Source of the DNA: Eledone cirrhosa
Taxonomy: Eukaryota
Length of the DNA stretch: 64,000 bases
NCBI GenBank assembly: GCA_964016885.1
Contig: OZ024745.1
Span: forward strand, 63,488,001-63,552,000
Direction of reading: 5' to 3'
The notes below the pieces were generated by a model. The model saw only the letters and a program-made list of their open reading frames with translations, was not told the origin of the DNA and made no database searches. Position 1 is the first letter of the stretch; each line of letters starts with the position of its first letter. A program made the position numbers and the translations under genes. Below are positions 3,198 through 58,935 of this stretch, one piece after another.

Positions 3198-3385
3198 ACG
3201 AAGGAAATGTGGTAAGGAACCAGGTGGACAATAACGCACGAAAGTACTCAATACTTAAGGTAGTAGAGTGGGTAATAGGAACAAGTAAGACCCCGACGGC
3301 TGAGCTCAAGCCGTTTCGACGGCTAATTCTGTACAGAATTAGCCGTCGAAACGGCTTGAGCTCAGCCGTCGGGGTCTTACTTGTT

Positions 3386-3390
<5 letters not shown>
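3198..3390 (-). mobile_element. (TA)n-embedded pLTR-like remnant ending in a perfect 116-bp palindrome (3275-3390)
   Basis: Palindrome centred on 3332/3333; homologues at 16255-16446 and 24452-24590 + 28016-28059. Confidence 0.8.
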
Positions 3391-4292: not shown

Positions 4293-5011
4293 GCCTTCAC
4301 ATATGATGGAGAATAATATAAAACTACTCATTCATGAGAGGTAAGGGAGGCTATCGTTAAATATTGTTATCTCCCTTGTTTGTTTTAGTAAAAAATGTTA
4401 ATAAATAATCTTGTCTCCCCAAACAAAGATTTTATGCCGAAACCTTGATTATATTAGGCTCACTAACTCTAAACTGATCTATGATTTCTTCCCTGTATTT
4501 TCTTGATAAAACCTAATGTTTATGGTTTCTGTGCAGAGATTATCAAAATTCCAATACTTTCAAATATTAGATCGAATATCTGAAGAGCAAAAACATTTCA
4601 AAGACGAAGTTAATAAAAAATGTTTTAAATAGGATACACAATGTCAGTTATTGTTTGGTTTGAGCTTCTTTACCTTTAATTACTGCATCAATACGTTTTG
4701 GCATATAAGGAAAACCAGCCTGTGATATTGGTCAGGTTGATGGAATTATATTGGTCTCCAAATACAACCTACAACTCCGCCTAATTGCAGTAATGCAAGA
4801 TGGCCATTCTATTTTTAGTATAGTTCATATATTCTCTATGGTGTTCAGATGACGTGAGTTACCTGCACGGTTTGCTGGTGCGGTTATTTATTTGACTGTG
4901 TGCAGGTGCCACATCGCGCTAGAAAATTTAAATCTACAGCACCGATCACCTTTACGGGTGATTGAAGCACAGAGGTCTCCAAAATTTCTTTATAAGTTGC
5001 TTGCTACTTTA

Positions 5012-5520
5012 CAGGGGCGGTGGAAGCATTTCTGAATTTGGCGGGAGAGGTGGCAGATTTGGACATTTTAGTTGAGGTGATTAGCTTAGCTCATTGCACT
5101 CTAAAATGGTCAGAAAACTTCGATGTGCGATGAACATGACAAGTACATAAATTGTACACAAATAAATGTGTGTTTTGATAGTTTGAGGAGAAAATATAAT
5201 TATTGGAGGGAGGCATATATATAATTTAAAAAAAAGCGGCCTGTGCCCTTTTCTAAGGGGTTACTATATCGAGCTTCTTCGCATTTGGTAAGAAATTGGA
5301 ATTATACCCAATTTATTCATCTCCCATATATAGAGAGAGCAAGAGTGGGGGGCTCATTCTATCGACATGGCTTTAAAAAAAGGCTTGTTTGCATAATTGC
5401 AAACGAATCGAATATTATTATTAATATTCGAAAATAAAATAAAGTAGCAGTAATGTACTGGTTAATTGCTGGCCTTGTGCCAAATGTAGAAACAGTTATT
5501 AATATTCGAAAAACTCAGAT

Positions 5521-5589
<69 letters not shown>

Positions 5590-6294
5590 TTATTTATTAT
5601 GACTATTGGTGAGCTTTCTTACTCTAAAGTTTCACCTTCGCACTCACAGTTTCACCAGTCTTGCCTGGTAAGTACGCAGGCGAGACTCCAGAGTAACAAG
5701 GTTTAGCCATAATAAATGAATATCTAAACTCTACTTCGTTATTGAGTTTTCATTCTTACGCCCGTCAATAATTCACGCACTCTCAGGTCTTAAATAATGC
5801 TCCCACCCCCACCACCACCACTTATTAATTTCTAATACACGGAACTATCTTCCAATTCCCCTCTCTGTTTCTACTACATGGAACTCCCTCTCATTCCCTC
5901 TCACTCTATCACTACCAAACTTTCCGACTCTCTATATCTACTAAACGGAACTCTCTTCCAATTCCCCTCTCTATATCAAGTAACGCCAAACCCTTGCTCT
6001 CTGTATATCTACTACACGGAACTCTCTTCAAATTCCTCTCTCTATATCATTAAACAGCAATCTCTCCCCCCTTTCTATATCTAATATACAACATACTCTC
6101 CCAACCTTCCTCTCGATATCAATTACCACCAAACTACCCCCCTCTCTATATCTATATCTATCTCTCCCATCTGTCTCTACATAACATGTACATAAATGGT
6201 ATCGCATATAGAAAAAGATGTGTGTTTTGGTAGTTTGGGGAGAAAAATATAATTATTGGGACGAGGGGCATGCCTCCCAGATCCACCGCCCCTG
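5012..6294. mobile_element. Possible non-autonomous DNA transposon with 13-bp TIRs (CAGGGGCGGTGGA), interrupted by later insertions
   Basis: caggggcggtgga at 5012 and tccaccgcccctg ending at 6294; ~50-bp internal duplication 5166-5216 / 6219-6270; no clean TSD. Confidence 0.5.
5830..6180. repeat. Degenerate pyrimidine-rich minisatellite (~35-38 bp unit)
   Basis: Recurrent ctactacacggaactctcttccaattcccctctctatat. Confidence 0.75.
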
Positions 6295-7250: not shown

Positions 7251-8664
7251 ACTAGTCCTCTATGTAGACATTTTTGTGGGGGGGGGGATTCATGCTTATT
7301 AATTTTTATGTAACCTAAAGAAAACTTCGACTTTAAGCAATGCTATTAAGTTAATTGCAGTTTCAGTCGACATTGAGTGAATAACTCGTTTTGGTTGCAG
7401 TTGTCTGAACTAAGTAACAACGTTGATAATTAACAAAAGGGATATAACTCGTATAATACTAATATCTATAAGGGAGATAACTGAAAGGGGAAATAATTCT
7501 TTTAGAGAATTTAAAAACAATTATTTCATGTTGAATACTATTTTCCCGCTGAACACAAATATGTACTTCATTCTTCCTTGAGGCTAACTTGGTTACAGTT
7601 ATATACGCCGTACAGAAAATGAAGCTTCGTATTAATTAAATCTCATTCATTTCCGTTGCAAACATCGCCAGAATGACGTGACCATTATAACTTGTTGAAA
7701 GAAATAGGAAAAAAATTTACTGAATGAATTAGATTGACAATTATTTGTTTAGTTTGACTTTTTGAAATTTTAAATTGTTTTAAATTTTTTTTTTTTTTTT
7801 TTTGTATGAGGTCGGCGGGATGGTGGCTTTTTTCCTCCCCTACCTTTTTGGGGGTTTTCATATTTATATAAATTTTACCGTCAGACTGTCATCTGAAAAC
7901 GGTTTTGTTTTTCGTTGTTTTTTATGAAATACATTTTTTTTCTATCAATTACTTATTAGGATTAAGGAATTTACAGGTGGAAAGCTTTGTTTGTTTGTTT
8001 TTGTATACGAAAAGCATTTCGTTTCGTTTGTCTAAATATATTTTGTAAGCATTGGAGACCATAGGATGTTTCATATTCTAAAAGTTTTAAGTATAAATTT
8101 ATATACAAGAAAAGTTATTACTGTTGCCAATCCCATATATCTAATTATATACAAGAAAAGGTATTTCTGTTGGCAATCCCATATGTCCAATCAATTTTGT
8201 TATCTATTATTATCTTTTCATGATTCTGTTTCTCTGATCTTTGATAAATAAAAATCCTAAGAGTTAAAAATACAAAACCATCACAAAATAGTTAGAGTGT
8301 GTGGTAAATATCAATACTGAAATGAGAAATGTCCCCAAAATGTTTGAAACAGTTTAGTCTACTAATTACTTTTATTGGGTTTGCAAAGTAATTTCATATG
8401 ATGAAATATTGTAATATTGTGTAATTGGTTTATTATCATTTATATATATATATATTATTAAAATAACAGATTAAAGTTTAAGTAAAGAATAGCTGCTTTC
8501 ACCCTTAACAGGATCTTCTGAAACTAAAAAAATCAATCTGTGAATGCAGAAGTAATATACTTATATATATATGTATGTAAAAAGTAAACAGAAATAGGAA
8601 CACAATCGGTACAGTATATGGAAGGTATATATTAGGTTAACACTTGATATATTCAGCAAGAGGG

Positions 8665-12662: not shown

Positions 12663-13057
12663 GTAATAATAATAAATTTGAAGACTAAAATCCAAAGAGG
12701 GCTCGATAAGGATAAATATATATCAAATATATAAGAACCGTTGAGCAAATATTTATTAAAATAACAGATTAAAGTTTAAGCAAAGAATCGCTGCTTTCAC
12801 CGTTAACGGGATCTTCTGTCTTTGCGCATAATTGTTTTTCACCGCTCCTATTAATGACGTATTATATTCATTTTTTCCCGTTCTTTGCCAGAGAACGTTT
12901 CCATGAACCAAAGTATCGTCTTCCTGTCTTCTTCCGGTTGCAACATTTTTTAAATATCCACTTCTGCGTTTACAGATTGACTTTGTTAGTTTCAGAAGAT
13001 CTCGTTAAGGGTGAAAGCAGCGATTCTTTGCTTAAACATTAATCTGTTATTTTAATA

Positions 13058-13060
<3 letters not shown>
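12662..13060. mobile_element. Same pLTR-like family, fold-back copy
   Basis: High identity to 22898-23367; (TA)n flanks. Confidence 0.8.
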
Positions 13061-13108
<48 letters not shown>

Positions 13109-15880: not shown

Positions 15881-16198
15881 GCATTTTAGAGAGATAGAAC
15901 AAGTGAACAAAAGAACTTTACAACCTTTTATTTGTTGATTTGTACAATTACTGTTGCCAATCTAAACCAAACAGTGAGTGTGTTCTATTATTATTTCTGG
16001 TAATATTATAACAATATGACCCTCTCCAAATATAACAATATATATATATAGAAGATCCCGTTAAGGATGAAAGCATCTATTCTTTGTTTAAACTTTAATC
16101 TGTTATTTTAATAAATATTTGCTGTACGGTTTTATATATTTATATACATTATCTTTATCGAGCCCTCTTTGGATTTTAGTCTTCACATTTATTATTAT

Positions 16199-16254
<56 letters not shown>

Positions 16255-16256
<2 letters not shown>

Positions 16257-16446
16257 CAAGGAAGGTGTGGTAAGATACCAGGTGGACCATGACACACCAG
16301 AGTACTCGATACTTGGGGTAGCAGAGTGGGTAATATGAATAGAATCAGGGCCCTGATGGCTGAGCTCTAGCCGTTTCGACAGCTAGATCAGATCTAGCTG
16401 TCGAAGTGGCCAGAGTTCAGCTGTCGGGTACCTGATTCTTTTCATA
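16255..16446 (-). mobile_element. Diverged copy of the 3198-3390 palindromic element
   Basis: Same leader (aacaaggaaggtgtggtaag...) followed by an imperfect palindrome. Confidence 0.75.
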
Positions 16447-18988: not shown

Positions 18989-19337
18989 GGGCGATGGGTT
19001 GGGGGTATCGGTAGCGCGTCGGACACCGTACTTTGCAGCACAGGGTTACGTCTCTTTACGTTCTGAGTTCAAATCACACCAAGGTTAGCTTTGCTTTTCA
19101 TCCCTACAGGGTCGATAAAATAAAGTACCACTAACGCACTGGAATCGATTTAATTGACTTTCCTCACCCCCAAAATTGTTGACCTTGTCCCTAAATCAGA
19201 AACCATTAGAGGTTAGCTTTGCTTTCCATCCTTACGAGGTCGATAAAATAAAGTAACAGTAACGTTCTGGGGTCGATTTAATTGACTTTCCCTTTCCCCA
19301 TAAATTGCTGGCCTTGTGCCTGAATCTGAAACCATTT
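18989..19337 (+). mobile_element. tRNA-derived SINE (family A) with tandem duplication of its 3' ~125 bp
   Basis: Body and tail occur twice (19082-19207, 19210-19337). Confidence 0.85.
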
Positions 19338-19806
19338 ACGAGAAACCAATACTACTAAAATAAGGGACACAACTTAATTTTGTTGAAAAAAACGAACAAC
19401 TCATCTATGTCTATGATATATTCTTTTATTTCTTAATTTCTTCTCAGTTCGTTTTATTTGGTACATACTAAGACAAATATTATGCTTATCATTTAGATTA
19501 AATTATTTAATAGTGGCTCAGCGGATTCAACGGGGATATGAAGAGATCGAATACTACCTAATTGATACGGTCTTGATTAAATATGATTTGACTTTTTCGA
19601 TAATACAGGGAGCTAACTCCGATTTTTCTCACATAATTGTTTAGCTGTTTTGAACGTATATTTAAATACCTTTACAAGAAATCTAATAAATATTATTCTT
19701 TAATATACTTTATAGAACTCCTGTTTATCATTTAATGAATTCTGCATAATTTATACTTAATTTCATTTTTCATTTCATTTTAAATTAGAGAAAAGTGGCT
19801 AACTGT

Positions 19807-19836
19807 CTTCTTCTTCTTCTTCTTCTTCTTCTTCTT

Positions 19837-19866
<30 letters not shown>
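19807..19866. repeat. (CTT)n microsatellite
   Basis: Direct reading. Confidence 0.95.
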
Positions 19867-19867
<1 letters not shown>

Positions 19868-19966
19868 TTCCACAGAGGGTCGTCGGGGCAGATTCCTCAA
19901 TCACCTCTTCGACAGCGTATCTCATACTACACAACTACAAGCTTATATTTGTGTATCTATCATTTA

Positions 19967-20027
<61 letters not shown>

Positions 20028-20029
<2 letters not shown>

Positions 20030-20855
20030 GTACATACATATATGTATACAGACGTACAGTAGTATGTATATATATACATACATGCACACACATATATATA
20101 TATCTACGTATGGGTTTACCGAACATTCAATATAATGCTCGGTTTGTTTGAATTAGGCCGTACAGTGTTCAGGCAACCATCGTCGCCTTTTTGTTCAACA
20201 CTGACACAGGAACGATGTACTAGTTTCAAGCTTATTAGCTATCGTAAGCGTCGTATACCTTCCTGCCAGATGATTGAACGTCTGAAAGTATATACTTTCC
20301 TTATGCATATTAACGGCTGAGCAGCCTAATTTGCATATCGAGTGAGTTAATCGGCCGGGCGCACCGAAAACGATAAATGGAAAAGAATGAAATGAAATGA
20401 AATTTCTCACTCTTAGTACGGCTGATACTTAAATGTAAGTATGTATGTATACGTACATACATATATGTATACAGACGTACAGTAGTCTGTATATATATAC
20501 ATACATGCACACATATATATATGTACGTATGCGGTTACCGAAGGTATACGATGCTGACGATAGCTAATAAGCTTGAAACTAGTACATCGTTCCTGTGTCA
20601 GTGTTGAACAAAAAGGCGACGATGGTTGTCTGAACACTCTACGGCGTAATTCGGGCTGTTTGTTTACAAACAAACCGAGCATTATTATAAATGTTCGGTA
20701 AACCCATACGTACATATATATATGTGTGCATGTATGTATATATATATATACATACTACTGTACGTCTGCATACATATATGTATGTACGTATACATACTTA
20801 TATTTAAGTATCAGCCGTACTAAGAGTGAGAAATGAAATTTCGTTTCATTCTTTT

Positions 20856-20860
<5 letters not shown>
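20028..20860. mobile_element. Diverged member of the same retrozyme family: ~1.2 units on minus (20028-20540) joined to ~0.75 unit on plus (20541-20860)
   Basis: Colinear similarity to the 420-bp unit; embedded in (TA)n. Confidence 0.88.
20548..20590 (+). ncRNA. Minimal type I hammerhead ribozyme
   Basis: acgaug CUGACGA u agcu-aaua-agcu u GAAA cua GUA caucgu. The minus-strand copy at ~20213-20255 has a damaged core (CUUACGA). Confidence 0.9.
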
Positions 20861-20891
<31 letters not shown>

Positions 20892-21193
20892 AATGAAATA
20901 AAAACAAAGGACAGGTTCCTTATATTGAAAAATTCATCATTTTACGATCATTTCTGGGATATATATGTGTGTTGGTATGTATATCATGTTAAAGATCTAT
21001 GTAAAAATTATTACAAATTATCAGAGGAGATATACATACCTATATATGCCATCTTCAGAAATGATGAAGTATGTTTATTGAAAGAATTAATACAAAAATA
21101 TACCACCAACGCATCAAAACAACCATAATAATACTAAAATAAACCAAAAAAAGACCACCTTCTTCTTCACCTATAATAAACTCCACACCAATT

Positions 21194-21810
21194 TTGACTA
21201 ATAATCTCCAAAAGAAACAGTACTCTACTAGCTACACATCCCCTAAACTATCACCCACCAACAACCTGTCTAACCATACTAACCTAATTACAACCCATTC
21301 TAAACCATACATTAATGAAAATAGTAACACTAAAACCACTATAGGTAACACAATTAACTCTCTTGATACAATATTTATGAATGGCTGTAACTGTAGAATC
21401 AAAAGAAATTGCCCATTAAAGGGAAATTCTCTTATTAATAACATAGTCTATAAATGTGTAATTATTACTAAGGACTCCACTCAATCCTATATAGGAGCTA
21501 CGTCTAACCAATTTAAAGTAAGATTTAATACCCACAAACATAGTTTTAAAAATGTCGCATTAGCTAATACAACCTCCTTGGCTGAAGCAATTAATAATTA
21601 TAGAAAGAAGGATATTGCTTACAACCTAACCTGGAGTGTGCTCAAAAGGGCCACCCCTTATCAAAATAGCAGATATGAGTGTAGGTTATGCTCCCAAGAA
21701 CTATTTGAGATCATGAAATCTAATGATATCCTATTAAATAAGCGACAGAAGTAATTATATCATGCAATCATAGAATTAGAAAAACCTTCAAATATTATAA
21801 ACTTAATTAA
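21194..21810 (+). pseudogene. PLE GIY-YIG endonuclease fragment with a 1-nt frameshift near the C-terminus
   Basis: CNCRIKRNCPLKGN, NIVYKC...SYIGATSNQFKVRFNTHKHSF, CRLCSQE, LLNKR, continuing in another frame as EVIISCNHR...KLN*. Confidence 0.88.
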
Positions 21811-22527
21811 TATATACCTCACTCTTATATTTTACAAATTATTATAATTAATTTCTAAAAAAATTTTTAATTTAGTGAACCTCTCATTAAATATTTACTA
21901 CAAAGAATTTCATAATTTTATTTCCCTCTTGCAGCTCACTTTACCTAAAGTTATCTTTAACCTCACTACTTCTTTTAACTGCATCTCCTATCTATCACAT
22001 TTAATACCTAGGATTAGTAAATATAATTAATATCTTTAATATTATGGATATTTAGATAGAAACAATACTTTTTATAAAAAAAATTTCTATTTCAGTTTCT
22101 CTCTCTCTATATATATATATATATTTTTTTTTTTTACTTCTTTATTTATCACATTCATAAGAATTAATATAATTTTAACTCTGTAAGTATACCTATCAAT
22201 TAATTTAATTTCCTTTTATGTTATCTAGGTTCCTTGAAATTTAAACAGGAGTAGTATTTCTCACTAACACTCTCATCCCACAAAAAATTCTTTTCCCTTC
22301 GCTTTTAAGAGCATTCTTTAATAACATCCTTCACTATCTCATTGACTTGACATCATTTCTCTTCCTCATTGTATTCTTTTCATTCAAAGCATAAATTTAC
22401 ATTCCTCCACTCCTAGCATAAAATTTCTACTACTGTTATTCTATCAACTTGACCTCTAACTTTTTCTATTGGTCAATTCAAAACCGACTTTTTGTATTAA
22501 TACTTTGTTTCTTTCAATAAACATACT

Positions 22528-22668
22528 TCATCATTTCTGAAGATGGCATGTATATGTGTAGGTATGTATATCTCCTCTGATAATTTGTAATATTTTTTTA
22601 CATAGATCTTTAACATGATATACATACCAACACACGTATATATCCCAGAAACGATCGTAAAATGATGA
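22528..22668 (+). ncRNA. Type I hammerhead with ~100-nt stem II in pLTR (inverted copy at 20934-21067)
   Basis: ucaucauuu CUGAAGA u gg...cc a GAAA cgauc GUA aaaugauga; 9-bp stem I; palindrome ACGAUCGU. Confidence 0.9.
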
Positions 22669-22863
22669 TTTTTTTTCAATATAAGGAACCTGTTCTTTGT
22701 TTTTATTTCATTGTTTTTATTAATTGATCTTGTCTCTGTTTTCCTATGATTTTTATCGTTAAATTTTGAATGCATTTTCTCTTTTCATGAAATCTTCTAT
22801 ATTTGGATTACATTGAGTTCTTCATACGGATTGGACACTACCGTTTATTTTGGTAGATTGATC

Positions 22864-22897
<34 letters not shown>

Positions 22898-22902
<5 letters not shown>

Positions 22903-23362
22903 TGAAATAACAGATTAAAGTTTAAGCAAAGAATCGTTGCTTTCACCCTTAACGGGATCTTCTGAAACTAACAAAGTCAATCTGTAAACGCAGAAGTGGA
23001 TATTTCAAAAAACATTGCAACCGGAGGAAGACAGGAAGACGCGCGTAATTGTTTTTCAACCCTCCTATTAATGACGTATCTTATTCGTTTTTTCCCGTTC
23101 TTTGCCAGCGAACGTTTCCACGAACCAAAGTATCGTCTTCCTGTCTTCCTCCGGTTGCAACGTTTTATGAAATATCCACTTCTGCGTTTACAGATTGACT
23201 TTGTTAGTTTCAGAAGATCCCGTTAAGGGTGAAAGCAGCGATTCTTTGCTTAAACTTTAATCTGTTATTTTAATAAATATTTGCTCTACGGTTCTTATAT
23301 ATTTGATATATATTTATCCTTATCGAGCCCTCTTTGGATTTTAGTCTTGAAATTTATTATTA

Positions 23363-23367
<5 letters not shown>
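22898..23367 (+). mobile_element. pLTR-like fold-back repeat with hammerhead-like CAGAAGA motif (23206-23256)
   Basis: 22898-23040 is an inverted copy of ~23136-23278; homologous to 12662-13060, 8455-8550 and 16050-16200. Confidence 0.8.
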
Positions 23368-23459
<92 letters not shown>

Positions 23460-23633
23460 ATATTAAATAAATGGAAACTATATTTTTAAAACCATATTTA
23501 TTCTATTACATATATTTCAAGGCTACTAAAACTTTGCCACGCTTTCATCAGATAAAATGCGAAGTATGTTTTATAAATTTTGACATAACCAAGGAAAATA
23601 CCTTAACGGTTCAAGTTTTCCTTACACACTTCG

Positions 23634-23694
23634 TATTTTATCTGATGAAAGCGTACCAAAGTTTTGGTACCCTTGAAATATATATAATAGAATA
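23634..23694 (+). ncRNA. Type I hammerhead in a pLTR remnant (23455-23820)
   Basis: uauuuuau CUGAUGA aagc guacc-aaaguuuu-gguac ccuu GAAA uauau AUA auagaaua; inverted partial copies at 23460-23570. Confidence 0.8.
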
Positions 23695-23832
23695 AATATG
23701 GTTTTATAAATATAGTTTCCATTGAATATTATACTCCAGAAAACTGTCGAGTGCTCTGAATCAGTTATAAACATTTATATTTGTTGAATTACCAACAACT
23801 TGAATATCCCTTCTGCTTATATATATATATAT

Positions 23833-24378
23833 AAATTAATAAAATAATGAATAAACAAAGAAACAGTTCCTTATATTAAAAAAATTCATCATTTTACGAT
23901 CGTTTCTAGGATATATATGTGTTAGAGTTGGTATGCATATTCTATAGATCTATGTACAATATTTATACAAACTATCAGAGGGAATATACATACCTACACA
24001 TATATAAACAGACCTATTGTATTGAATCTTTGTTTTTTTTCAATAAATAAATATCATTATTTCTGAAGACAGCATATATATGTGTAGGTATGTATATTCC
24101 CTCTGATAGTTTGTATAAATATTGTACATCGATCTATAGAATATGCATACCAACTCTAACACATATATATCCTAGAAACGATCGTAAAATGATGAATTTT
24201 TTTAATATAAGGAACTGTTTCTTTGTTTATTCATTATTTTATTAATTTATCTTGACTCTGTTTTCCGTTTATTTTTCACCGAAAGTAGTTTTTGAATGCA
24301 TCTTCTCTTTTCATATCCGGATTACATTGAGTTCTTCATACGGATTGGACACTACCGTAAACGTTTGGTAGATTTATC

Positions 24379-24382
<4 letters not shown>
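23833..24382 (+). mobile_element. Solo pLTR related to 22497-22868, with 5' inversion; hammerhead at 24055-24194
   Basis: CTGAAGA 24063, GAAACGATCGTA 24175-24186; 23833-24005 is an inverted copy; same 3' end sequence as 22790-22868. Confidence 0.85.
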
Positions 24383-24451
<69 letters not shown>

Positions 24452-24453
<2 letters not shown>

Positions 24454-24588
24454 CGAAGGAAATGTGGTAAGGAACCAGATGGACCATAACGCACCAAAGT
24501 ACTCAATACTTAGGGGAGTAGAGTGGGTAATAGGAACAAGTATGACCCGACTGCAGAGCTCAAGCCGTTTCGACGGCTAATTCTGAGT

Positions 24589-24590
<2 letters not shown>
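24452..24590 (-). mobile_element. Left part of a third copy of the palindromic element; right arm at 28016-28059
   Basis: 24548-24590 is the reverse complement of 28016-28059 with one mismatch. Confidence 0.8.
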
Positions 24591-24631
<41 letters not shown>

Positions 24632-24778
24632 TATTTTCCGTTGTGTTGTAATATAAATATTACACACAGTAGATTATCAGCTCACGTAGAGTTTGCTCGA
24701 CGGTTCCAGTTGTAGTTCCAAAAGTAATCCGGAGAAAAATAGAAAGATTTGAATGGATACAGTTTAGTTGAAAGGAAT

Positions 24779-24898
24779 TTATTGACACGTGTTTCTATAA
24801 CAGTTACATAACCTAAAACAGCTGCTATCTACAAACTTTTAGTTATGCAGACATTCAACATTTCAATGTTATTATTTACTGTCATTTCATCAGAATAA
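24779..24898 (-). ncRNA. Type I hammerhead with long stem II in PLE pLTR
   Basis: uuauu CUGAUGA a augacagu...acuguuau a GAAA cacgu GUC aauaa; palindromic stem III ACACGUGU. Confidence 0.85.
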
Positions 24899-25454
24899 TA
24901 TTACTGAGGACCTATTTAGTTTTTATAGAGAATATTAGGAGGGAGGGGTGAAGTTGTTAGAAGAATAGTTGAAGGAGTGGTTTTTCGATAGCAGTGAGAA
25001 TTCTTGGTGGCAGTGAGTAATTAGATTCCCATCTGTTGTTTTGACATTTTTTATAGAATATATTATTGGTTATTTTTCTAAATCTATAGAAGGATTAGAG
25101 ATAGTAAAGATATGCGTGGTTGGTTTTGTGTTTGCACTTAATTAACATTCAGACTTAAATTTTTCTTTCAAGTGTACGTATCCTTTCACCCACGCATTCA
25201 CAAACAAATATATTTGCACACCTCTACAAAATACATATACTCACAATTCACATATTCATACTTACATATATATACACATGCATACACATATATATACACA
25301 CATGTATTCATGTACATACATACGCGCTCATGTGTATACATTTTCATACTCAACTTACCTTTATATACACACGTATAGACACACACATATATACATACAT
25401 ACTCTAGTCCATGTGTACACACATACACATACATACACATCCATATACACATAT

Positions 25455-25537
<83 letters not shown>

Positions 25538-25804
25538 CACTTTAATACATGAATACACTTACATCTAACTATACACATCAAACATATATATATATTTACT
25601 TATTTATATACATTTTCACATATATATACATACTTATGGACGTTTTTAGACACATTCATTATCGCATATTTGTACCTATTCTCATCAGCATATCTTTCCA
25701 TTATTAGTGTGGTAATTTAAGGTTATTAATATATGTTGAGAAGAGATTGTTTTTATATTTTTCTAACTAGATTAAGGTTTATATAGTTGGGGGATGTCCC
25801 TCTT

Positions 25805-27360
25805 TTATGTAATGTTCGGCTTGTAGTGGGAAAAAAGGGTTTTAGTTCTGTGACGGCAGAATAATGTTCGTTCAATTCTGTTATTCAGCAGTTTCTTCTT
25901 GTGTGTGATTATGTAATAAATCTCAAGATTACACAATTTGCAGAAATTTTGGCTCCTGGAAAAGCTTTGGGTTTTAGCTAATTTTTCCCATTTTAGGGTA
26001 AACTTTTGATCGCTATCCCTGAGCGTCCAAGCTTTTTCTGCTAAAGTTGTTACATTTCTTTGGCTCTGGTGTTTTATTGAGTAAGAATGCCTATACAATC
26101 GAGATTTAAACGATGTTGCCGTTGATCCCACGTAATACCACTCGTTGCCTCCGGATTTAATGGTACACTTATAAATAATATTTTTTTCCAGGCAGTTATT
26201 GCCGAGGGGGCAGTTGTCAGGATAGGTGTAGTTACAGTTGTGTACGTTGGGTTTTCTCTGGAGTAGTATTGCGGACGAACTTAGGTGTGGTTTATTTATG
26301 TTCTGTAGTGTATTGTTTACTGTTTTTTTTGTGTTCTTTGTACTTAAGTTCTCAGTGTTTTCGTTTAACCTTCTAGTATTGATCTTTTGTATGTGTTGTT
26401 CAAGGTTTAACGCTGTAGAGTATGACAGTCTTATAGTGGTAGGGTTTAGGATTTTGTGGTATTTGTGTGATGTGGGAAAATGTCTTTTAATTATTTTAAA
26501 GAAGAGTACTGGTAAATTTGTACTAATGGAACTATTGTATTCGGGGTTATACCATAAGTACTCTTTGCATCGCTTTCTATTAGTTTTGTTTGTTGGTTTA
26601 CTGGTGTGCATACTATGGTAGTAAGTGTGGTTTGGTGTTGTGTTATTATATCTACCTATGTGGGATTTATTTTGGGTGTTTTGATTGTTCCCATCTATGT
26701 ACTCTATTTTGTTGAGGTAGCCTGCTTTACTAAGGGCGTTATCGTAGTACTCGGCGTGTTCCTTAAATACTTGTATGTTAGAAGATAGACCCGAGATTCT
26801 AAGGGAAATATTTTTAGGGATAGATTTAATTATAGAGATGGGGTGGTTAGACCCAACATTTACGTATTTGAGATTTTCATTCAATTTATGAAACGGTTTA
26901 ATCAAACCAGAGTTTAAATTGAGTGTGACATCCAGGAAGTTAACTACTGTAAGGTTGTATTCATATGTTATAGTTAGTCCTATTTCGAGTAGTAGTTTTC
27001 TTATATCTTTGCGTAGTTTTTCTAGTTTTTGGTTATTAAGGTTTTTAGCTAGGAGGAGAACATCGTCGCGGTATATTCCGCCGTGGAGATTGCTGAATTT
27101 TTCCTGGAGTCTAAAGGCGATAAATAACCCCACAATATCAGTTATTTCCGCCGAATCGTTAGAGCCCATTGTTATGTCAAAGTTAGAGGGTCTATCTTTA
27201 CGTACCCAATAACTGTTCTCAAATTTGACTATAGTTTTCCTAGCTTCTAATATAATCTTAATTTCATCGTTTGTAAGGTCAGAGTTATCCTTAGCAAACT
27301 TAATGGCTCTATTCAAAGTTTCAGGTGATATCGATGAGTAATATTCATCGATATCAAAAT
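25805..27360 (-). CDS. PLE reverse transcriptase + GIY-YIG endonuclease (N-terminally truncated at RT motif A)
   Basis: FDIDEYYSSI, ITMGSNDSAEITDIVG, GIYRDD, VNFLDVTLNL, YVNVGSNHP, CPLGNNCL, NIIYKC...YYVGST...FKSRLYRH, CKLCNLE, LLNNRIE..CRH. The ORF-track start codon comes from the inverted pLTR. Confidence 0.95.
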
Positions 27361-27808
27361 GAAAATGTATACACATGAGCGCGTATGTATGTACATGAAT
27401 ACATGTGTGTATATATATGTGTATGCATGTGTATATATATGTAAGTATGAATATGTGAATTGTGAGTATATGTATTTTGTAGAGGTGTGCAAATATATTT
27501 GTTTGTGAATGCGTGGGTGAAAGGATACGTACACTTGAAAGAAAAATTTAAGTCTGAATGTTAATTAAGTGCAAACACAAAACCAACCACGCATATCTTT
27601 ACTATCTCTAATCCTTCTATAGATTTAGAAAAAATAACCAATAATATATTCTATAAAAAATGTCAAAACAACAGATGGGAATCTAATTACTCACTGCCAC
27701 CAAGAATTCTCACTGCTATCGAAAAACCACTCCTTCAACTATTCTTCTAACAACTTCACCCCTCCCTCCTAATATTCTCTATAAAAACTAAATAGGTCCT
27801 CAGTAATA

Positions 27809-27928
27809 TTATTCTGATGAAATGACAGTAAATAATAACATTGAAATATTGAATGTCTGCATAACTAAAAGTTTGTAGATAGCAGCTGTTTTAGGTTATG
27901 TAACTGTTATAGAAACACGTGTCAATAA
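27809..27928 (+). ncRNA. Inverted-pLTR copy of the same hammerhead
   Basis: CTGATGA 27814-27820, GAAA 27912-27915, GTC 27921-27923. Confidence 0.85.
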
Positions 27929-27960
27929 ATTCCTTTCAACTAAACTGTATCCATTCAAAT

Positions 27961-28017
<57 letters not shown>

Positions 28018-28311
28018 ACTCAGAATTAGCCGTCGAAACAGCTTGAGCTCTGCAGTCGGCTTAATACGGGATGTTTGTTTAGAAACACTCCGAGCATTAT
28101 AATAAATGTTCGGTGAATCCATACGTACATATATATATGTGTGCATGTATGTATATATATATACATACTACTGTATGTCTGTATACATATATGTATGTAC
28201 GTGTACACACTTATATTTAAGTAACAGCCGTACTAAGAGTGGGAAATGAAATTTCGTTTCATTTTTCCTGTTTATCGTATTCGGTGCACCCGGCCGATTA
28301 ACCCACTCGAT

Positions 28312-28319
28312 ATGCAAAT
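28312..28319 (+). promoter_or_regulatory. Octamer motif ATGCAAAT in the retrozyme unit (also 28732, 29156, 29998; mutated at 29576)
   Basis: Exact octamer about 73 nt upstream of each hammerhead core; also present in the diverged copy near 20327-20334 (minus strand). Confidence 0.45.
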
Positions 28320-28385
28320 TGGGCTACTCAGCTGTTAATATGCATAAGGTAAGTATATACGTTCAACAATCTGGCAGGAAGGTAT

Positions 28386-28428
28386 ACGTTGCTGATGATA
28401 GCTAATAAGCTTGAAACTAGTACAGCGT
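28386..28428 (+). ncRNA. Minimal type I hammerhead ribozyme, array unit 1
   Basis: acgttg CUGAUGA u agcu-aaua-agcu u GAAA cua GUA cagcgu; palindromic stem III ACUAGU; predicted cleavage after 28422. Confidence 0.92.
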
Positions 28429-28805
28429 TCCTTTGTCAGTGTTGAACAAACGAGCAACGATGGTTGCTGGACACTACGGCTTAATACGGGATGTTTGTTT
28501 ACAAACACTCCGAGCATTATAATAAATGTTCGGTGAATCCATACGTACATATATATATGTGTGCATGTATGTATATATATATACATACTACTGTATGTCT
28601 GTATACATATATGTATGTACGTGTACATACTTATATTTAAGTAACAGCCGTACTAAGAGTGGGAAATGAAATTTCGTTTCATTATTCCTGTTTATCGTAT
28701 TCGGTGCACCCGGCCGATTAACGCACTCGATATGCAAATTGGGCTACTCAGCCGTTAATATGCATAAGGTAAGTATATACGTTCAACAATCTGGCAGGAA
28801 GGTAT

Positions 28806-28848
28806 ACGTTGCTGATGATAGCTAATAAGCTTGAAACTAGTGCAGCGT
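28806..28848 (+). ncRNA. Hammerhead, array unit 2 (GUG triplet, predicted non-cleaving)
   Basis: Same motif, but ctagtgcagc instead of ctagtacagc. Confidence 0.85.
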
Positions 28849-29229
28849 TCCTTTGTCAGTGTTGAACAAACGAGCAACGATGTTTGCTGGACACTACGGC
28901 TTAATACGGGATGTTTGTTTACAAACACTCCGAGCATTATAATAAATGTTCGGTGAATCCATACGTACATATATATATATATGTGTGCATGTATGTATAT
29001 ATATATACATACTACTGTATGTCTGTATACATATATGTATGTACGTGTACATACTTATATTTAAGTAACAGCCGTACTAAGAGTGGGAAATGAAATTTCG
29101 TTTCATTTTTCCTGTTTATCGTATTCGGTGCACCCGGCCGATTAACCCACTCGATATGCAAATTGGGCTACTCAGCCGTTAATATGCATAAGGTAAGTAT
29201 ATACGTTCAACAATCTGGCAGGAAGGTAT

Positions 29230-29272
29230 ACGTTGCTGATGATAGCTAATAAGCTTGAAACTAGTACAGCGT
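29230..29272 (+). ncRNA. Hammerhead, array unit 3
   Basis: Intact motif, cleavage after 29266. Confidence 0.92.
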
Positions 29273-29649
29273 TCCTTTGTCAGTGTTGAACAAACGAGCA
29301 ACGATTGTTGCTGGACACTACGGCTTAATACGGGATGTTTGTTTACAAACACTCCGAGCATTATAATAAATGTTCCGTGAATCCATACGTACATATATAT
29401 ATGTGTGCATGTATGTATATATATATACATACTACTGTATGTCTGTATACATATATGTATGTACGTGTACATACTTATATTTAAGTAACAGCCGTACTAA
29501 GAGTGGGAAATGAAATTTCGTTTCATTATTCCTGTTTATCGTATTCGGTGCACCCGGCCGATTAACGCACTCGATATGCTAATTGGGCTACTCAGCCGTT
29601 AATATGCATAAGGTAAGTATATACGTTCAACAATCTGGCAGGAAGGTAT

Positions 29650-29692
29650 ACGTTGCTGATGATAGCTAATAAGCTTGAAACTAGTACAGCGT
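29650..29692 (+). ncRNA. Hammerhead, array unit 4
   Basis: Intact motif, cleavage after 29686. Confidence 0.92.
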
Positions 29693-30071
29693 TCCTTTGT
29701 CAGTGTTGAACAAACGAGTAACGATGGTTGCTGGACACTACGGCTTAATACGGGATGTTTGTTTACAAACACTCCGAGCATTATAATAAATGTTCGGTGA
29801 ATCCATACGTACATATATATATGTGTGCATGTATGTATATATATATATACATACTACTGTATGTCTGTATACATATATGTATGTACGTGTACATACTTAT
29901 ATTTAAGTAACAGCCGTACTAAGAGTGGGAAATGAAATTTCGTTTCATTTTTCCTGTTTATCGTATTCGGTGCACCCGGTCGATCAACCCACTCGATATG
30001 CAAATTGGGCTACTCAGCCGTTAATATGCATAAGGTAAGTATATACGTTCAACAATCTGGCAGGAAGGTAT

Positions 30072-30114
30072 ACGTTGCTGATGATAGCTAATAAGCTTGA
30101 AACTAGTACAGCGT
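30072..30114 (+). ncRNA. Hammerhead, array unit 5
   Basis: Intact motif, cleavage after 30108. Confidence 0.92.
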
Positions 30115-30377
30115 TCCTTTGTCAGTGTTGAACAAACGAGCAACGATGGTTGCTGGACACTACGGCTGAATACGGGATGTTTGTTTACAAACACTCCGAG
30201 CATTATAATAAATGTTCGGTGAATCCATACGTACATATATATATGTGTGCATGTATGTATATCTATATATACATACTACTGTATGTCTGTATACATATAT
30301 GTATGTACGTGTACATACTTATATTTAAGTAACAGCCGTACTAAGACTGGGAAATGAAATTTCGTTTCATTTTTCCT

Positions 30378-30433
<56 letters not shown>

Positions 30434-30452
30434 GTATATACTTATATATATG

Positions 30453-30492
<40 letters not shown>

Positions 30493-31749
30493 CATATATA
30501 TATTTATATATATATATATATTCATGTATGCATATGCATACATTCTAGATTTTGTAGTTGTTGTCATTATGTGCTGTTCAATTTCATGTTAGATAAACAA
30601 AAGGAAAATAAAAGGAAGTAGAATGTTAGTCCTGCCAGCCTCCTCACGCAGCTCATCTGCTGTATTGGCGCAATTTTCTTGTTGTAGAAGCGTTAGTTTA
30701 CTGCATGAAAGCTAAAAATATGGTATTGTCGCGTAATCGTATGAAGTGACTGCCTCACTTCACTAGGATAACTATTTGTAAAATAGGCAGTTTAAAAGAT
30801 GGAGGAATAGATTAAGACCAGCAAGAAGAGGAGGCTCAAAGGAGAAGAGATAGTCATTGAGGAGGTCAAACAGTGTGAGAATAAAATATCTTTTTCAAAC
30901 TAACGAATAACTAGTAATAAAGATAAAGTGAAAGAGTGAAAAGTATGTGGTGCGTTTGTTTCTTTTTATTGGCAATACTGGCAACATGATTATCCCAAAA
31001 TAAGACACACACTCACACACACACACTAAAGAATCTATAAGAACGCAGGAAATGGCTAGCGTGGCTCCTCCCTAGCTTTTCCCATTTATAAGGGTATTTT
31101 ACCCGATTTTCTATACTGTGTTTGCAGCTAAGAATAGAGTATATGTCAACAATTCCAGGATCATTACTTAGGAAAACATCTGTGAAGACATCAGAGACAT
31201 CACTAGGTCTGTTTATAAAGACGATATTCGAACCGTCAACATGTGCCTAAAACTTCAAGGATTCAAATGGGAATCATTTGGAACGTGTGCAGTAACCCTG
31301 GAAAGAAACATTATAACATACCATACTCTATATTGTTTTTCAGCGGATTAAATAAATATACTCAGATTTTCATGAATGTTTGTCTAAAACTGAATAATGT
31401 AGACAAAGATGAAAACGGAACCGCACTGTTACATATATCATATGTATATAAAAGTATTAATCTATGTGATGTACATTTATATGTATGAGGACGTATTGTG
31501 TGCGATTATTGGAATTGCACATATGTTTGTGTGTGTATGTGTAAGCGCATGTGTTTCTATTTTACTCCTACCTCCGTTCTTACTATGACCAAGTGCTGAA
31601 GCTGGCGCATTTGTGATACAGCTTCACCCATTCTAACATTCAATTCAGCCTCTTGCATCCAATCAATCATTCGTGAAAACGGCCTTGAGATACTTCAGTG
31701 TAACTAACATCACATGCATCACATGGAAAGTGCACGGCGCAGGCTTTCT

Positions 31750-41953: not shown

Positions 41954-58935
<16,982 letters not shown>

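Follow-up and report, generated by a model that had tools for sequence, protein, structure and literature searches.

In the genome of Eledone cirrhosa (3.0 Gb), a 64-kb stretch (positions 63488001-63552000 of contig OZ024745.1; hereafter the window, meaning the whole stretch that was analysed) raises the question of whether non-coding retrozymes are mobilised by the Penelope-like elements (PLEs) next to which they lie. Two retrozyme loci, copy A (20028-20857) and a tandem array (28057-30381, plus strand), occur here close to two PLEs with a GIY-YIG endonuclease (EN), PLE1 (20889-22866, plus strand) and PLE2 (24629-27963, minus strand), and the original prediction interpreted this arrangement as a candidate helper/parasite system. 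That PLEs mobilise retrozymes has been suggested before in the literature. PLEs were put forward as strong candidate helpers of metazoan retrozymes, with circles as templates (Cervera and de la Pena 2020, PMC7229834), and animal retrozymes were described as non-autonomous PLE partners (Li, Clavereau and Pollet 2026, bioRxiv 10.64898/2026.07.22.740005). In the accessible text of both studies, the enzyme moving animal retrozymes and the circular template are proposed but not demonstrated. Here, it is suggested with a probability of about 0.75 that Hydra-clade PLEs inserted the retrozyme in trans into (TA)n tracts with their reverse transcriptase (RT) and GIY-YIG endonuclease, the adjacency in the window being a by-product of the shared target. 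The idea of a helper acting in trans is retained because the retrozyme and Hydra-clade PLEs follow a common two-site end rule, and not because of adjacency.

The core of the retrozyme has 9,994 exact matches in the genome, compared with 0 for the control, and its unit measures 420-426 nt. Neither copy A nor the array contains a frame of at least 150 aa, and the retrozyme loci are non-coding. A motif-and-pairing scan of the whole window detected type I hammerheads with a palindromic stem III in copy A, in four of the five array units, in PLE1, in PLE2 and in a further element, D. The retrozyme hammerhead is small and has CTAG as stem III. In copy A (20554-20584, plus strand) stem I comprises 6 bp and stem II 4 bp, the latter preceded by a U-U pair, and the cut is predicted after TA. 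The array motifs lie at 28392, 28812, 29236, 29656 and 30078, of which the second, in unit 2, is altered to TG at the cut site. Moreover, the third pair of stem I, which was outside the search pattern, is paired in 69 of 71 copies with five pair types. With one type I hammerhead motif per tandem unit and dispersed, multiple copies, the repeat is by its sequence a non-LTR (long terminal repeat) retrozyme with predicted cleavage, and as such a further case of a known class. An Rfam scan of 19000-31500 gave no hammerhead family among the matches listed (150 of 194), which are microRNA and pestivirus families below gathering scores, driven by the TA-rich sequence. An A-to-G excess, as expected from RNA editing, was not seen in 30 young units (5 of 84 substitutions).

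The evidence on the mobilising enzyme comes from the ends of the insertions. Forty of the first 41 distinct retrozyme loci along contig C1 were taken with flanks of ~5 kb; one locus was dropped for overlap, and three stretches were shifted against overlap. The retrozyme ends at unit position ~157 or ~212, each time with a short TAT or TATAT running into (TA)n, and these two fixed 3' end sites, referred to as short and long, are 55-60 nt apart. Fifty-one of 59 outer ends are located at the two sites, and TA follows in 44 of the 51. Two arms in inverted orientation are present at 18 of the 40 loci; at 13 of them both ends coincide with the sites, and in every one of these a long end is combined with a short end (binomial p=2.4e-4), while the remaining five have one end elsewhere. 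The positions of the 5' ends are scattered; of 81 arms, 66 extend across the site cut by the ribozyme, none begins 5 nt or less from that site, and 44 are longer than one unit. No poly(A) or repeat tail was found at the arm starts, and the arms begin at the fixed internal sites.

The same pairing of a long with a short end characterises the local PLEs. It was found in 21 of 21 cases in the PLE2 family, where the ends are 113 nt apart, and likewise for PLE1 (3/3), for the abundant repeat X (26/26) and for the elements C (6/7) and D (2/3) of the window. For a PLE protein of the Poseidon clade, it has been reported that two internal RT start sites produce the genomic 'tail', a signature called PLE-unique, and that both target strands are cut and extended (Frangieh et al. 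2024, PMC11167929). The end rule common to the retrozyme and the Hydra-clade PLEs constitutes genomic evidence on the mobilising enzyme. In the accessible text of PMC7229834 and 10.64898/2026.07.22.740005 end footprints are not used as evidence, and a literature search joining retrozymes with twin priming found nothing. The claim that PLEs supply RT and EN in trans is in this way supported in general, but not through the two copies of the window. PLE1 contains no RT and PLE2 lacks the first 268 of 785 residues, so neither can be the helper. One helper candidate is the PLE2 family, which has intact open reading frames (ORFs) and matches the youngest retrozyme insertions in age. Among four contig runs, the two from organism A contained both elements, and organisms B and C yielded traces only.

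An additional link is provided by locus L084 (3406-6463; C1:18484400-18494399), where a two-unit retrozyme is nested in a Hydra-type ORF; its target, which is not TA, is duplicated over 9 bp. Non-LTR retrozymes are expected to have target duplications longer than 4 bp, and at (TA)n insertions any such duplication would be hidden by the target. Later, the broken PLE was copied again, and its inverted arm, inside further inverted pairs, took up a part of the retrozyme (820 bp, 97.2%). Therefore, retrozyme sequence has been copied in cis by an enzyme of a PLE. In the proposed mechanism, the endonuclease would cut both strands of a (TA)n tract and each DNA end would prime cDNA synthesis at one of the two internal start sites, the template being an uncut multimeric or circular retrozyme RNA. 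The two cDNAs would then be joined at their truncated ends. Each insertion would leave TA tracts on both sides that are used by later insertions, so that piles form, and the PLE copies of the window would be later arrivals in tracts beside retrozymes.

Alternatively, the repeat could be the truncated pseudo-long terminal repeat (pLTR) of an unrecognised autonomous PLE that moved in cis, the arrays having been generated later by DNA recombination. Elements C, D and E of the window are such ends, Xenopus retrozymes were traced to pLTRs by Li et al. (10.64898/2026.07.22.740005), and contig C28 carries long satellite-like arrays of at least 48 units that are 5-8% apart. However, the 5' junctions of 53 loci, which were read by eye, revealed no shared upstream sequence and no same-strand ORF except at the nested locus L084, and the arms continue unit after unit. 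Furthermore, several identical units are present in each arm of a single insertion, which counts against this origin because recombination after insertion does not readily give them. This origin is therefore regarded as unlikely. It appears quite unlikely that a long interspersed nuclear element (LINE)-type enzyme (RTE, CR1 or L2) moves the repeat, in which case the inversions would reflect twin priming and the (TA)n targeting would be convergent. Twin priming is carried out by L1. LINEs were named as an alternative (PMC7229834), but the fixed internal starts, the lack of a poly(A) or repeat tail and the combination of one long with one short end resemble the local PLEs.

Whether the template is a circle is a question on which the identity of units across arms bears. 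Arrays were fetched with a four-unit query, which biases the set towards long arrays, and 12 were examined. Three two-armed insertions with a long and a short end contain 6, 5 and 11 units that are identical across 330 non-simple columns, and in the first two the identity covers the entire unit. These undiverged insertions (L224/L225 on C20, L220 on C70 and L221 on C28) imply that the retrozyme family was mobile very recently. In one arm of 16 units, the units are ~0.1% apart. An A-B-A-B alternation of units occurs in three arrays, namely that of the window (2 alternating columns, 10 private), one on C777 (L217; 2 alternating columns, one imperfect) and L086 (15 alternating columns, 0 private), where A and B differ by 4.6% and like units are identical in the compared columns. 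Four of the 12 arrays are satellite-like with units 5-8% apart, and one has too few units.

Copying round monomer circles, giving identical units, and round dimer circles, giving the A-B-A-B pattern, would fit these arrays. The identical and the A-B-A-B groups are also explained by linear RNA transcribed from a master array that had recently been homogenised, for which the 16-unit arm is a possible example. We tentatively consider, at slightly less than even odds, that a telomerase-related Hydra-clade enzyme performs rolling-circle reverse transcription, with two enzymes at the two sides of the (TA)n break copying one retrozyme circle. Both enzymes would be primed at the two fixed start sites; monomer circles would yield the arms of identical units (6/6, 5/5 and 11/11 in non-simple columns), and dimer circles of two unlike units would yield the A-B-A-B arrays of the window, C777 and L086. 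The satellites show that DNA-level amplification of the retrozyme unit also occurs. Satellite-like arrays of at least 48 copies, 5-8% apart, are located on C28 at 36058-36079 kb, 43.95, 45.66 and 110.0 Mb and on C1 at 97.0 Mb, and the longest of them has a weak five-unit period.

The motifs of the PLEs in question had been associated with the Naiad clade, but they are of the Hydra type, to which both PLE1 and PLE2 belong by motif. A query with the EN of PLE2 gave 59,637 candidates, and the 150 matches scored were all 98-100% identical, many of them in open frames of 785 aa. In the ORF of the PLE2 family (locus L193), RWK is found at position 49, DKT at 133, YRDD at 364 and GIY-YIG at 662 of 785 aa; RWK and DKT were read from this ORF, the window copy of PLE1 holding no RT. 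The EN is thus C-terminal to the RT in a single ORF, which is a Hydra feature, and not N-terminal as in Naiad, and DKT stands in place of the Naiad DKA. Among the 120 of 298 homologues listed, the EN lies behind the RT by motif in 95, GIY-YIG was detected in 96, DKT and CxCx5C in 102 each, RWK in 86 and two Cys within GIY-YIG in one. The CxCx5C linker reads CNCTYPDNC in the PLE2 family and CNCRIKRNC in PLE1. Of CCHH and CX2-5CxxC, both criteria for Naiad and for Neptune/Nematis, CCHH is absent, a single Cys being present between GIY and YIG in PLE2, and CX2-5CxxC had no match in the three proteins examined. CxxC and CxH surround E and N, as CKLCNLE and CRH in PLE2 and as CRLCSQE in PLE1, whose CNH lies in another frame than CRLCSQE. 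Moreover, hammerhead motifs are present in the pLTRs of both PLEs, which inserted into (TA)n as Hydra-clade elements do, whereas Naiad is defined as having no canonical hammerhead. In Pfam, the frame of PLE2 had no match, and PLE1 matched GIY-YIG weakly (E 0.027). The 149 best relatives of PLE1 are 85-94% identical to it, and the tandem period of PLE2 is ~3.6 kb in locus L175. The motifs on which this association had relied, YRDD, CxCx5C and CxxC, do exist, but YRDD occurs only in PLE2, and in the window copy of PLE2 a Tyr replaces the second linker Cys. The Naiad label was rejected since it fails every defining feature tested (EN position, DKA, CCHH/CX2-5CxxC and absence of a hammerhead).

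The adjacency itself has a simpler background. Between 19970 and 30521, eight elements that insert into (TA)n are piled up in series with (TA)n tracts between them, in the order copy A, PLE1, C, D, E, X, PLE2, (X') and retrozyme array, and the original prediction covered four of the eight. In agreement with that prediction, (TA)n borders every element, copy A, PLE1 and PLE2 have inverted arms, and copy A is separated from PLE1 by a single tract, (TA)15 at 20858-20888, which lies between two primed 3' ends, the long end of copy A and the short end of PLE1. The array does lie to the right of PLE2 but does not abut it, as (TA)26 (27964-28015) and X' (28016-28059) intervene. Where a PLE adjoins a retrozyme, its end is not an RNA 5' end, as had been assumed, but the primed 3' end of an inverted arm. 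The facing ends of the retrozymes differ as well, copy A facing PLE1 with its 3' end and the array facing PLE2 with its 5' end.

For a quantitative comparison, a neighbour was defined as a PLE ORF or a pLTR of PLE1, PLE2 or E within 500 bp, and 40 evenly spaced stretches and 720 points not chosen for TA served as controls; items close to stretch edges were excluded. Such a neighbour was present at 4 of the 40 retrozymes, at 12 of 132 other TA tracts of the same stretches (p=1.0), at 3 of 68 TA tracts of the control stretches (p=0.42) and at 4 of 71 copies of X, C or D (p=0.46); the sole significant contrast was that with the points not chosen for TA (13/720, p=0.01). Within 2 kb, the numbers were 8 of 40 for retrozymes and 22/75 and 9/48 for comparison sites. 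Only 15 of the 40 control stretches contain a TA tract, which means that TA tracts and their inserts cluster. In the opposite direction, 40 of the 150 listed PLE2 loci were sampled (39 near the head of the list and one later row with a full frame). A retrozyme lies within 500 bp of one of them, X of five, C of five and D of four, and in the single case (L197) a retrozyme fragment resides inside the internal TA tract of PLE2. A short retrozyme piece was present at 1 of 29 PLE1 loci, for which the flanks comprised 1.5 kb only. No PLE match was found in the flanks of seven young-array loci screened (L218, L220, L221 and L223-L226), which represent three insertions and two further arrays. Finally, when the order of the eight window elements is shuffled, both retrozymes lie beside an ORF-bearing PLE in 7,680 of 40,320 orders (19%). 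The adjacency in the window is thus likely to be ordinary (TA)n clustering, a by-product of the shared target. A shared (TA)n preference, which had been offered as an alternative from the outset, accounts for it, and with no excess over the (TA)n null the adjacency loses its value as evidence for a helper/parasite relation. Three members of the pile, C, D and E, are ends of PLE families without coding sequence, and a PLE origin is therefore likely for whatever adjoins an insertion in piles of this kind. Caution is advisable, since neighbours within (TA)n piles are uninformative on helper/parasite relations.

The age relations point in the same direction. The arms of copy A differ by ~6%, which for a retrozyme is an upper bound on age that overstates it if the template units differed, and those of PLE1 by 2.4%; the array units differ by 0.7-1.9%, X and X' at 1 of 44 sites and the PLE2 arms at 1 of 604 (0.17%). 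Judged from these divergences, both window PLE copies look younger than the retrozyme beside them. The simplest order of insertion would be X, array and PLE2 on the right side and copy A and PLE1 on the left. In the PLE2 family, the arms differ by 0-0.6% in 19 of 20 loci, the remaining locus being an 18-nt alignment, and the youngest retrozyme insertions show 0% divergence. The idea of a retrozyme burst older than PLE2 was dropped because such undiverged insertions exist.

Several observations weigh against the trans-mobilisation and shared-target reading, among them the bound on retrozyme ages just mentioned. The hammerhead has a U-U where the conserved G10.1-C11.1 pair noted for hammerheads (PMC4209133) is expected, and it folds no better than shuffled sequences (z -0.6 to -1.3). 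In a top-hit set of 13 loci, 9 are two-armed, of which five are long+short, three have another end and one, with a 52-bp arm, is long+long. An alignment of the retrozyme with the five pLTR-type ends of the window scored no better than shuffles, and among 57 sequences behind EN hits there was no match except one neighbouring copy, both comparisons covering part of the PLE families of the genome. Likewise, no shared start signal of retrozyme and PLE tails was found by folding, by eye or by local alignment. The samples are small, were chosen by exact core and stem from a single contig, of which they cover the first 23 Mb, and TA tracts within one stretch are not independent. Lastly, genome-wide pattern counts gave 3,874 forward matches for long ends of the retrozyme at TA (~7,750 in total, the forward count having been doubled because reverse matches overlap), 21,854 X long ends and 1,488 PLE2 short ends. 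A PLE2 short end is faced across a short TA tract by 5 of the ~7,750 retrozyme long ends and by 4 of the 21,854 X long ends, which leans towards an excess (odds ratio 3.5, p=0.059); the count detects only TA gaps of ~11-42 nt, which apply to 7 of 23 sampled PLE2 short ends. These pairs amount to 0.06% of the retrozyme long ends and to 5 of the 1,488 PLE2 short ends, and since they lie tail to tail, each partner needed its own priming. A physical link, by which retrozymes would lie at PLE 5' ends owing to joint transcription or joint insertion with the enzyme-supplying PLE, could draw on this odds ratio, on an ORF-bearing PLE within 100 bp of both window retrozymes, on the common strand of copy A and PLE1 and on the nested retrozyme of L084, which is able to ride in a PLE transcript, but is very unlikely and largely refuted already by frequencies equal to TA controls in both directions (4/40 and 1/40), the rarity of the tail-to-tail pairs, the unlike geometry with X' intervening at the array, window PLE copies that lack a whole RT and look younger, the 19% of shuffled orders and the seven young-array loci with no PLE nearby.

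The individual elements of the pile-up are as follows. From a (TA)n tract at its left edge (19970-20027), copy A extends with an inverted arm (20028-20542, minus strand), primed at the short start site and carrying the hammerhead core CTTA instead of CTGA, and a direct arm (20540-20857, plus strand), which ends at the long start site; it represents an older subfamily, 7.4% from the array unit. PLE1 is a Hydra-type remnant with only linker and GIY-YIG, its coding frame (21143-21754) has a break near the C-terminus, and its inverted arm (20889-21098) pairs with 22489-22715. Element C (22899-23365, plus strand) is the two-armed 3' end of another Hydra-type family and matches sequence 760-790 nt behind the EN in four other loci (95-97% in three, 91% in one); three further copies lie in the window at 8455-8553, 12664-13062 and 16050-16200. 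Element D (23455-23817, plus strand), a two-armed pLTR-like end with a hammerhead at 23642-23686 (stem III TATATA), is 75-80% identical to sequence behind the EN in three other loci, and element E (23834-24381, plus strand) is a two-armed, pLTR-only relative of PLE1. The long arm of X (24453-24590, minus strand) is the 3' end of the abundant repeat with 21,854 long ends at TA. Copies of X in the window lie at 24453-24590, 3198-3387 and 16258-16385; most X arms end near one 5' position, the L199 copy (4394-5764) is ~600 bp longer, and neither a hammerhead nor an ORF was found in X.

PLE2, which is young, Hydra-type and 5'-truncated at RT motif A, is located in the TA centre of the palindrome formed by X and X'. 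Its window ORF (27358-25805) corresponds to residues 269-785 of the 785-aa family ORF, and its inverted arm (27359-27963) pairs with 24744-25347. An internal TA/CA-rich tract (25417-25631) is present in the 3' region of PLE2 and in all full 3' ends listed. The plus-strand X' has 44 bp and is an inverted match to 24547-24590, i.e. the short arm of X or an inverted flank copy, and it is joined to the retrozyme array through a CGG microhomology. The array consists of 5.5 units of 420-424 nt (period 420) in one arm, with its long end at (TA)n, and a (TA)n-rich tract (30381-30521) forms the right edge. The PLE hammerheads have the palindromic stem III that had been described, CGATCG in PLE1 (22537-22659) and CACGTG in PLE2 (24893-24784, minus strand; 27814-27923, plus strand), but are not minimal, since stem II measures 104 and 91 nt, respectively. 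Those at 22537-22659 and 24893-24784 are without G10.1-C11.1, and many copies of PLE1 likewise have the long stem II. Other families contribute further hammerhead motifs to the window, at 46396-46450 (plus strand, stem III TGCGCA) and 8696-8673 (minus strand). Outside the window, TA-centred inverted repeats of 86-527 bp were seen in L094 (7324-7835), L098 (3457-3690) and L171 (2954-4385), the last bearing a different hammerhead motif.

With many open 785-aa Hydra frames and undiverged retrozyme insertions at hand, the published in vitro PLE assay is directly applicable. Compared with known systems, the repeat resembles the metazoan non-LTR retrozymes of PMC7229834 in its non-coding tandem units, in one type I hammerhead per unit and in thousands of dispersed copies. 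Its unit of 420-426 nt exceeds the 170-400 nt given there, it has U-U in place of G10.1-C11.1 and it is known here from genomic DNA; moreover, a (TA)n target with two fixed PLE-type ends is not described in the accessible text of that study. Li et al. (10.64898/2026.07.22.740005) argue from shared distribution and from homology to pLTRs, chiefly in vertebrates, with no mollusc among the sampled classes named in the accessible text, whereas the present case rests on the insertion footprint, without pLTR homology having been found. With Naiad PLEs (PMC8557442), the elements share (TA)n targeting, inverted arms and a tail, but the features peculiar to Naiad, i.e. N-terminal EN, DKA, CCHH, CX2-5CxxC and the lack of a hammerhead, are absent here. 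Hydra-clade PLEs as characterised by Craig et al. (2021, PMC8557442) agree in the C-terminal GIY-YIG, RWK, DKT, CxCx5C, the absence of CCHH, CxxC with CxH, hammerheads, (TA)n insertion and inverted arms. They are generally <3 kb, compared with the ~3.6-kb period of PLE2, and unlike them the PLEs described here have a stem II of 91-104 nt; the tail of ~110-150 nt also differs from the 30-40 bp quoted for PLEs (PMC8557442). The Poseidon element PAc of Anolis (PMC11167929) belongs to another clade, has its start sites inside the ORF and, in the accessible text, was tested with no non-autonomous partner, nor is the strict long+short pairing observed here stated for it. Nevertheless, it has in common with the present system two internal RT start sites, both target strands cut and extended, and an uncut RNA as the template.

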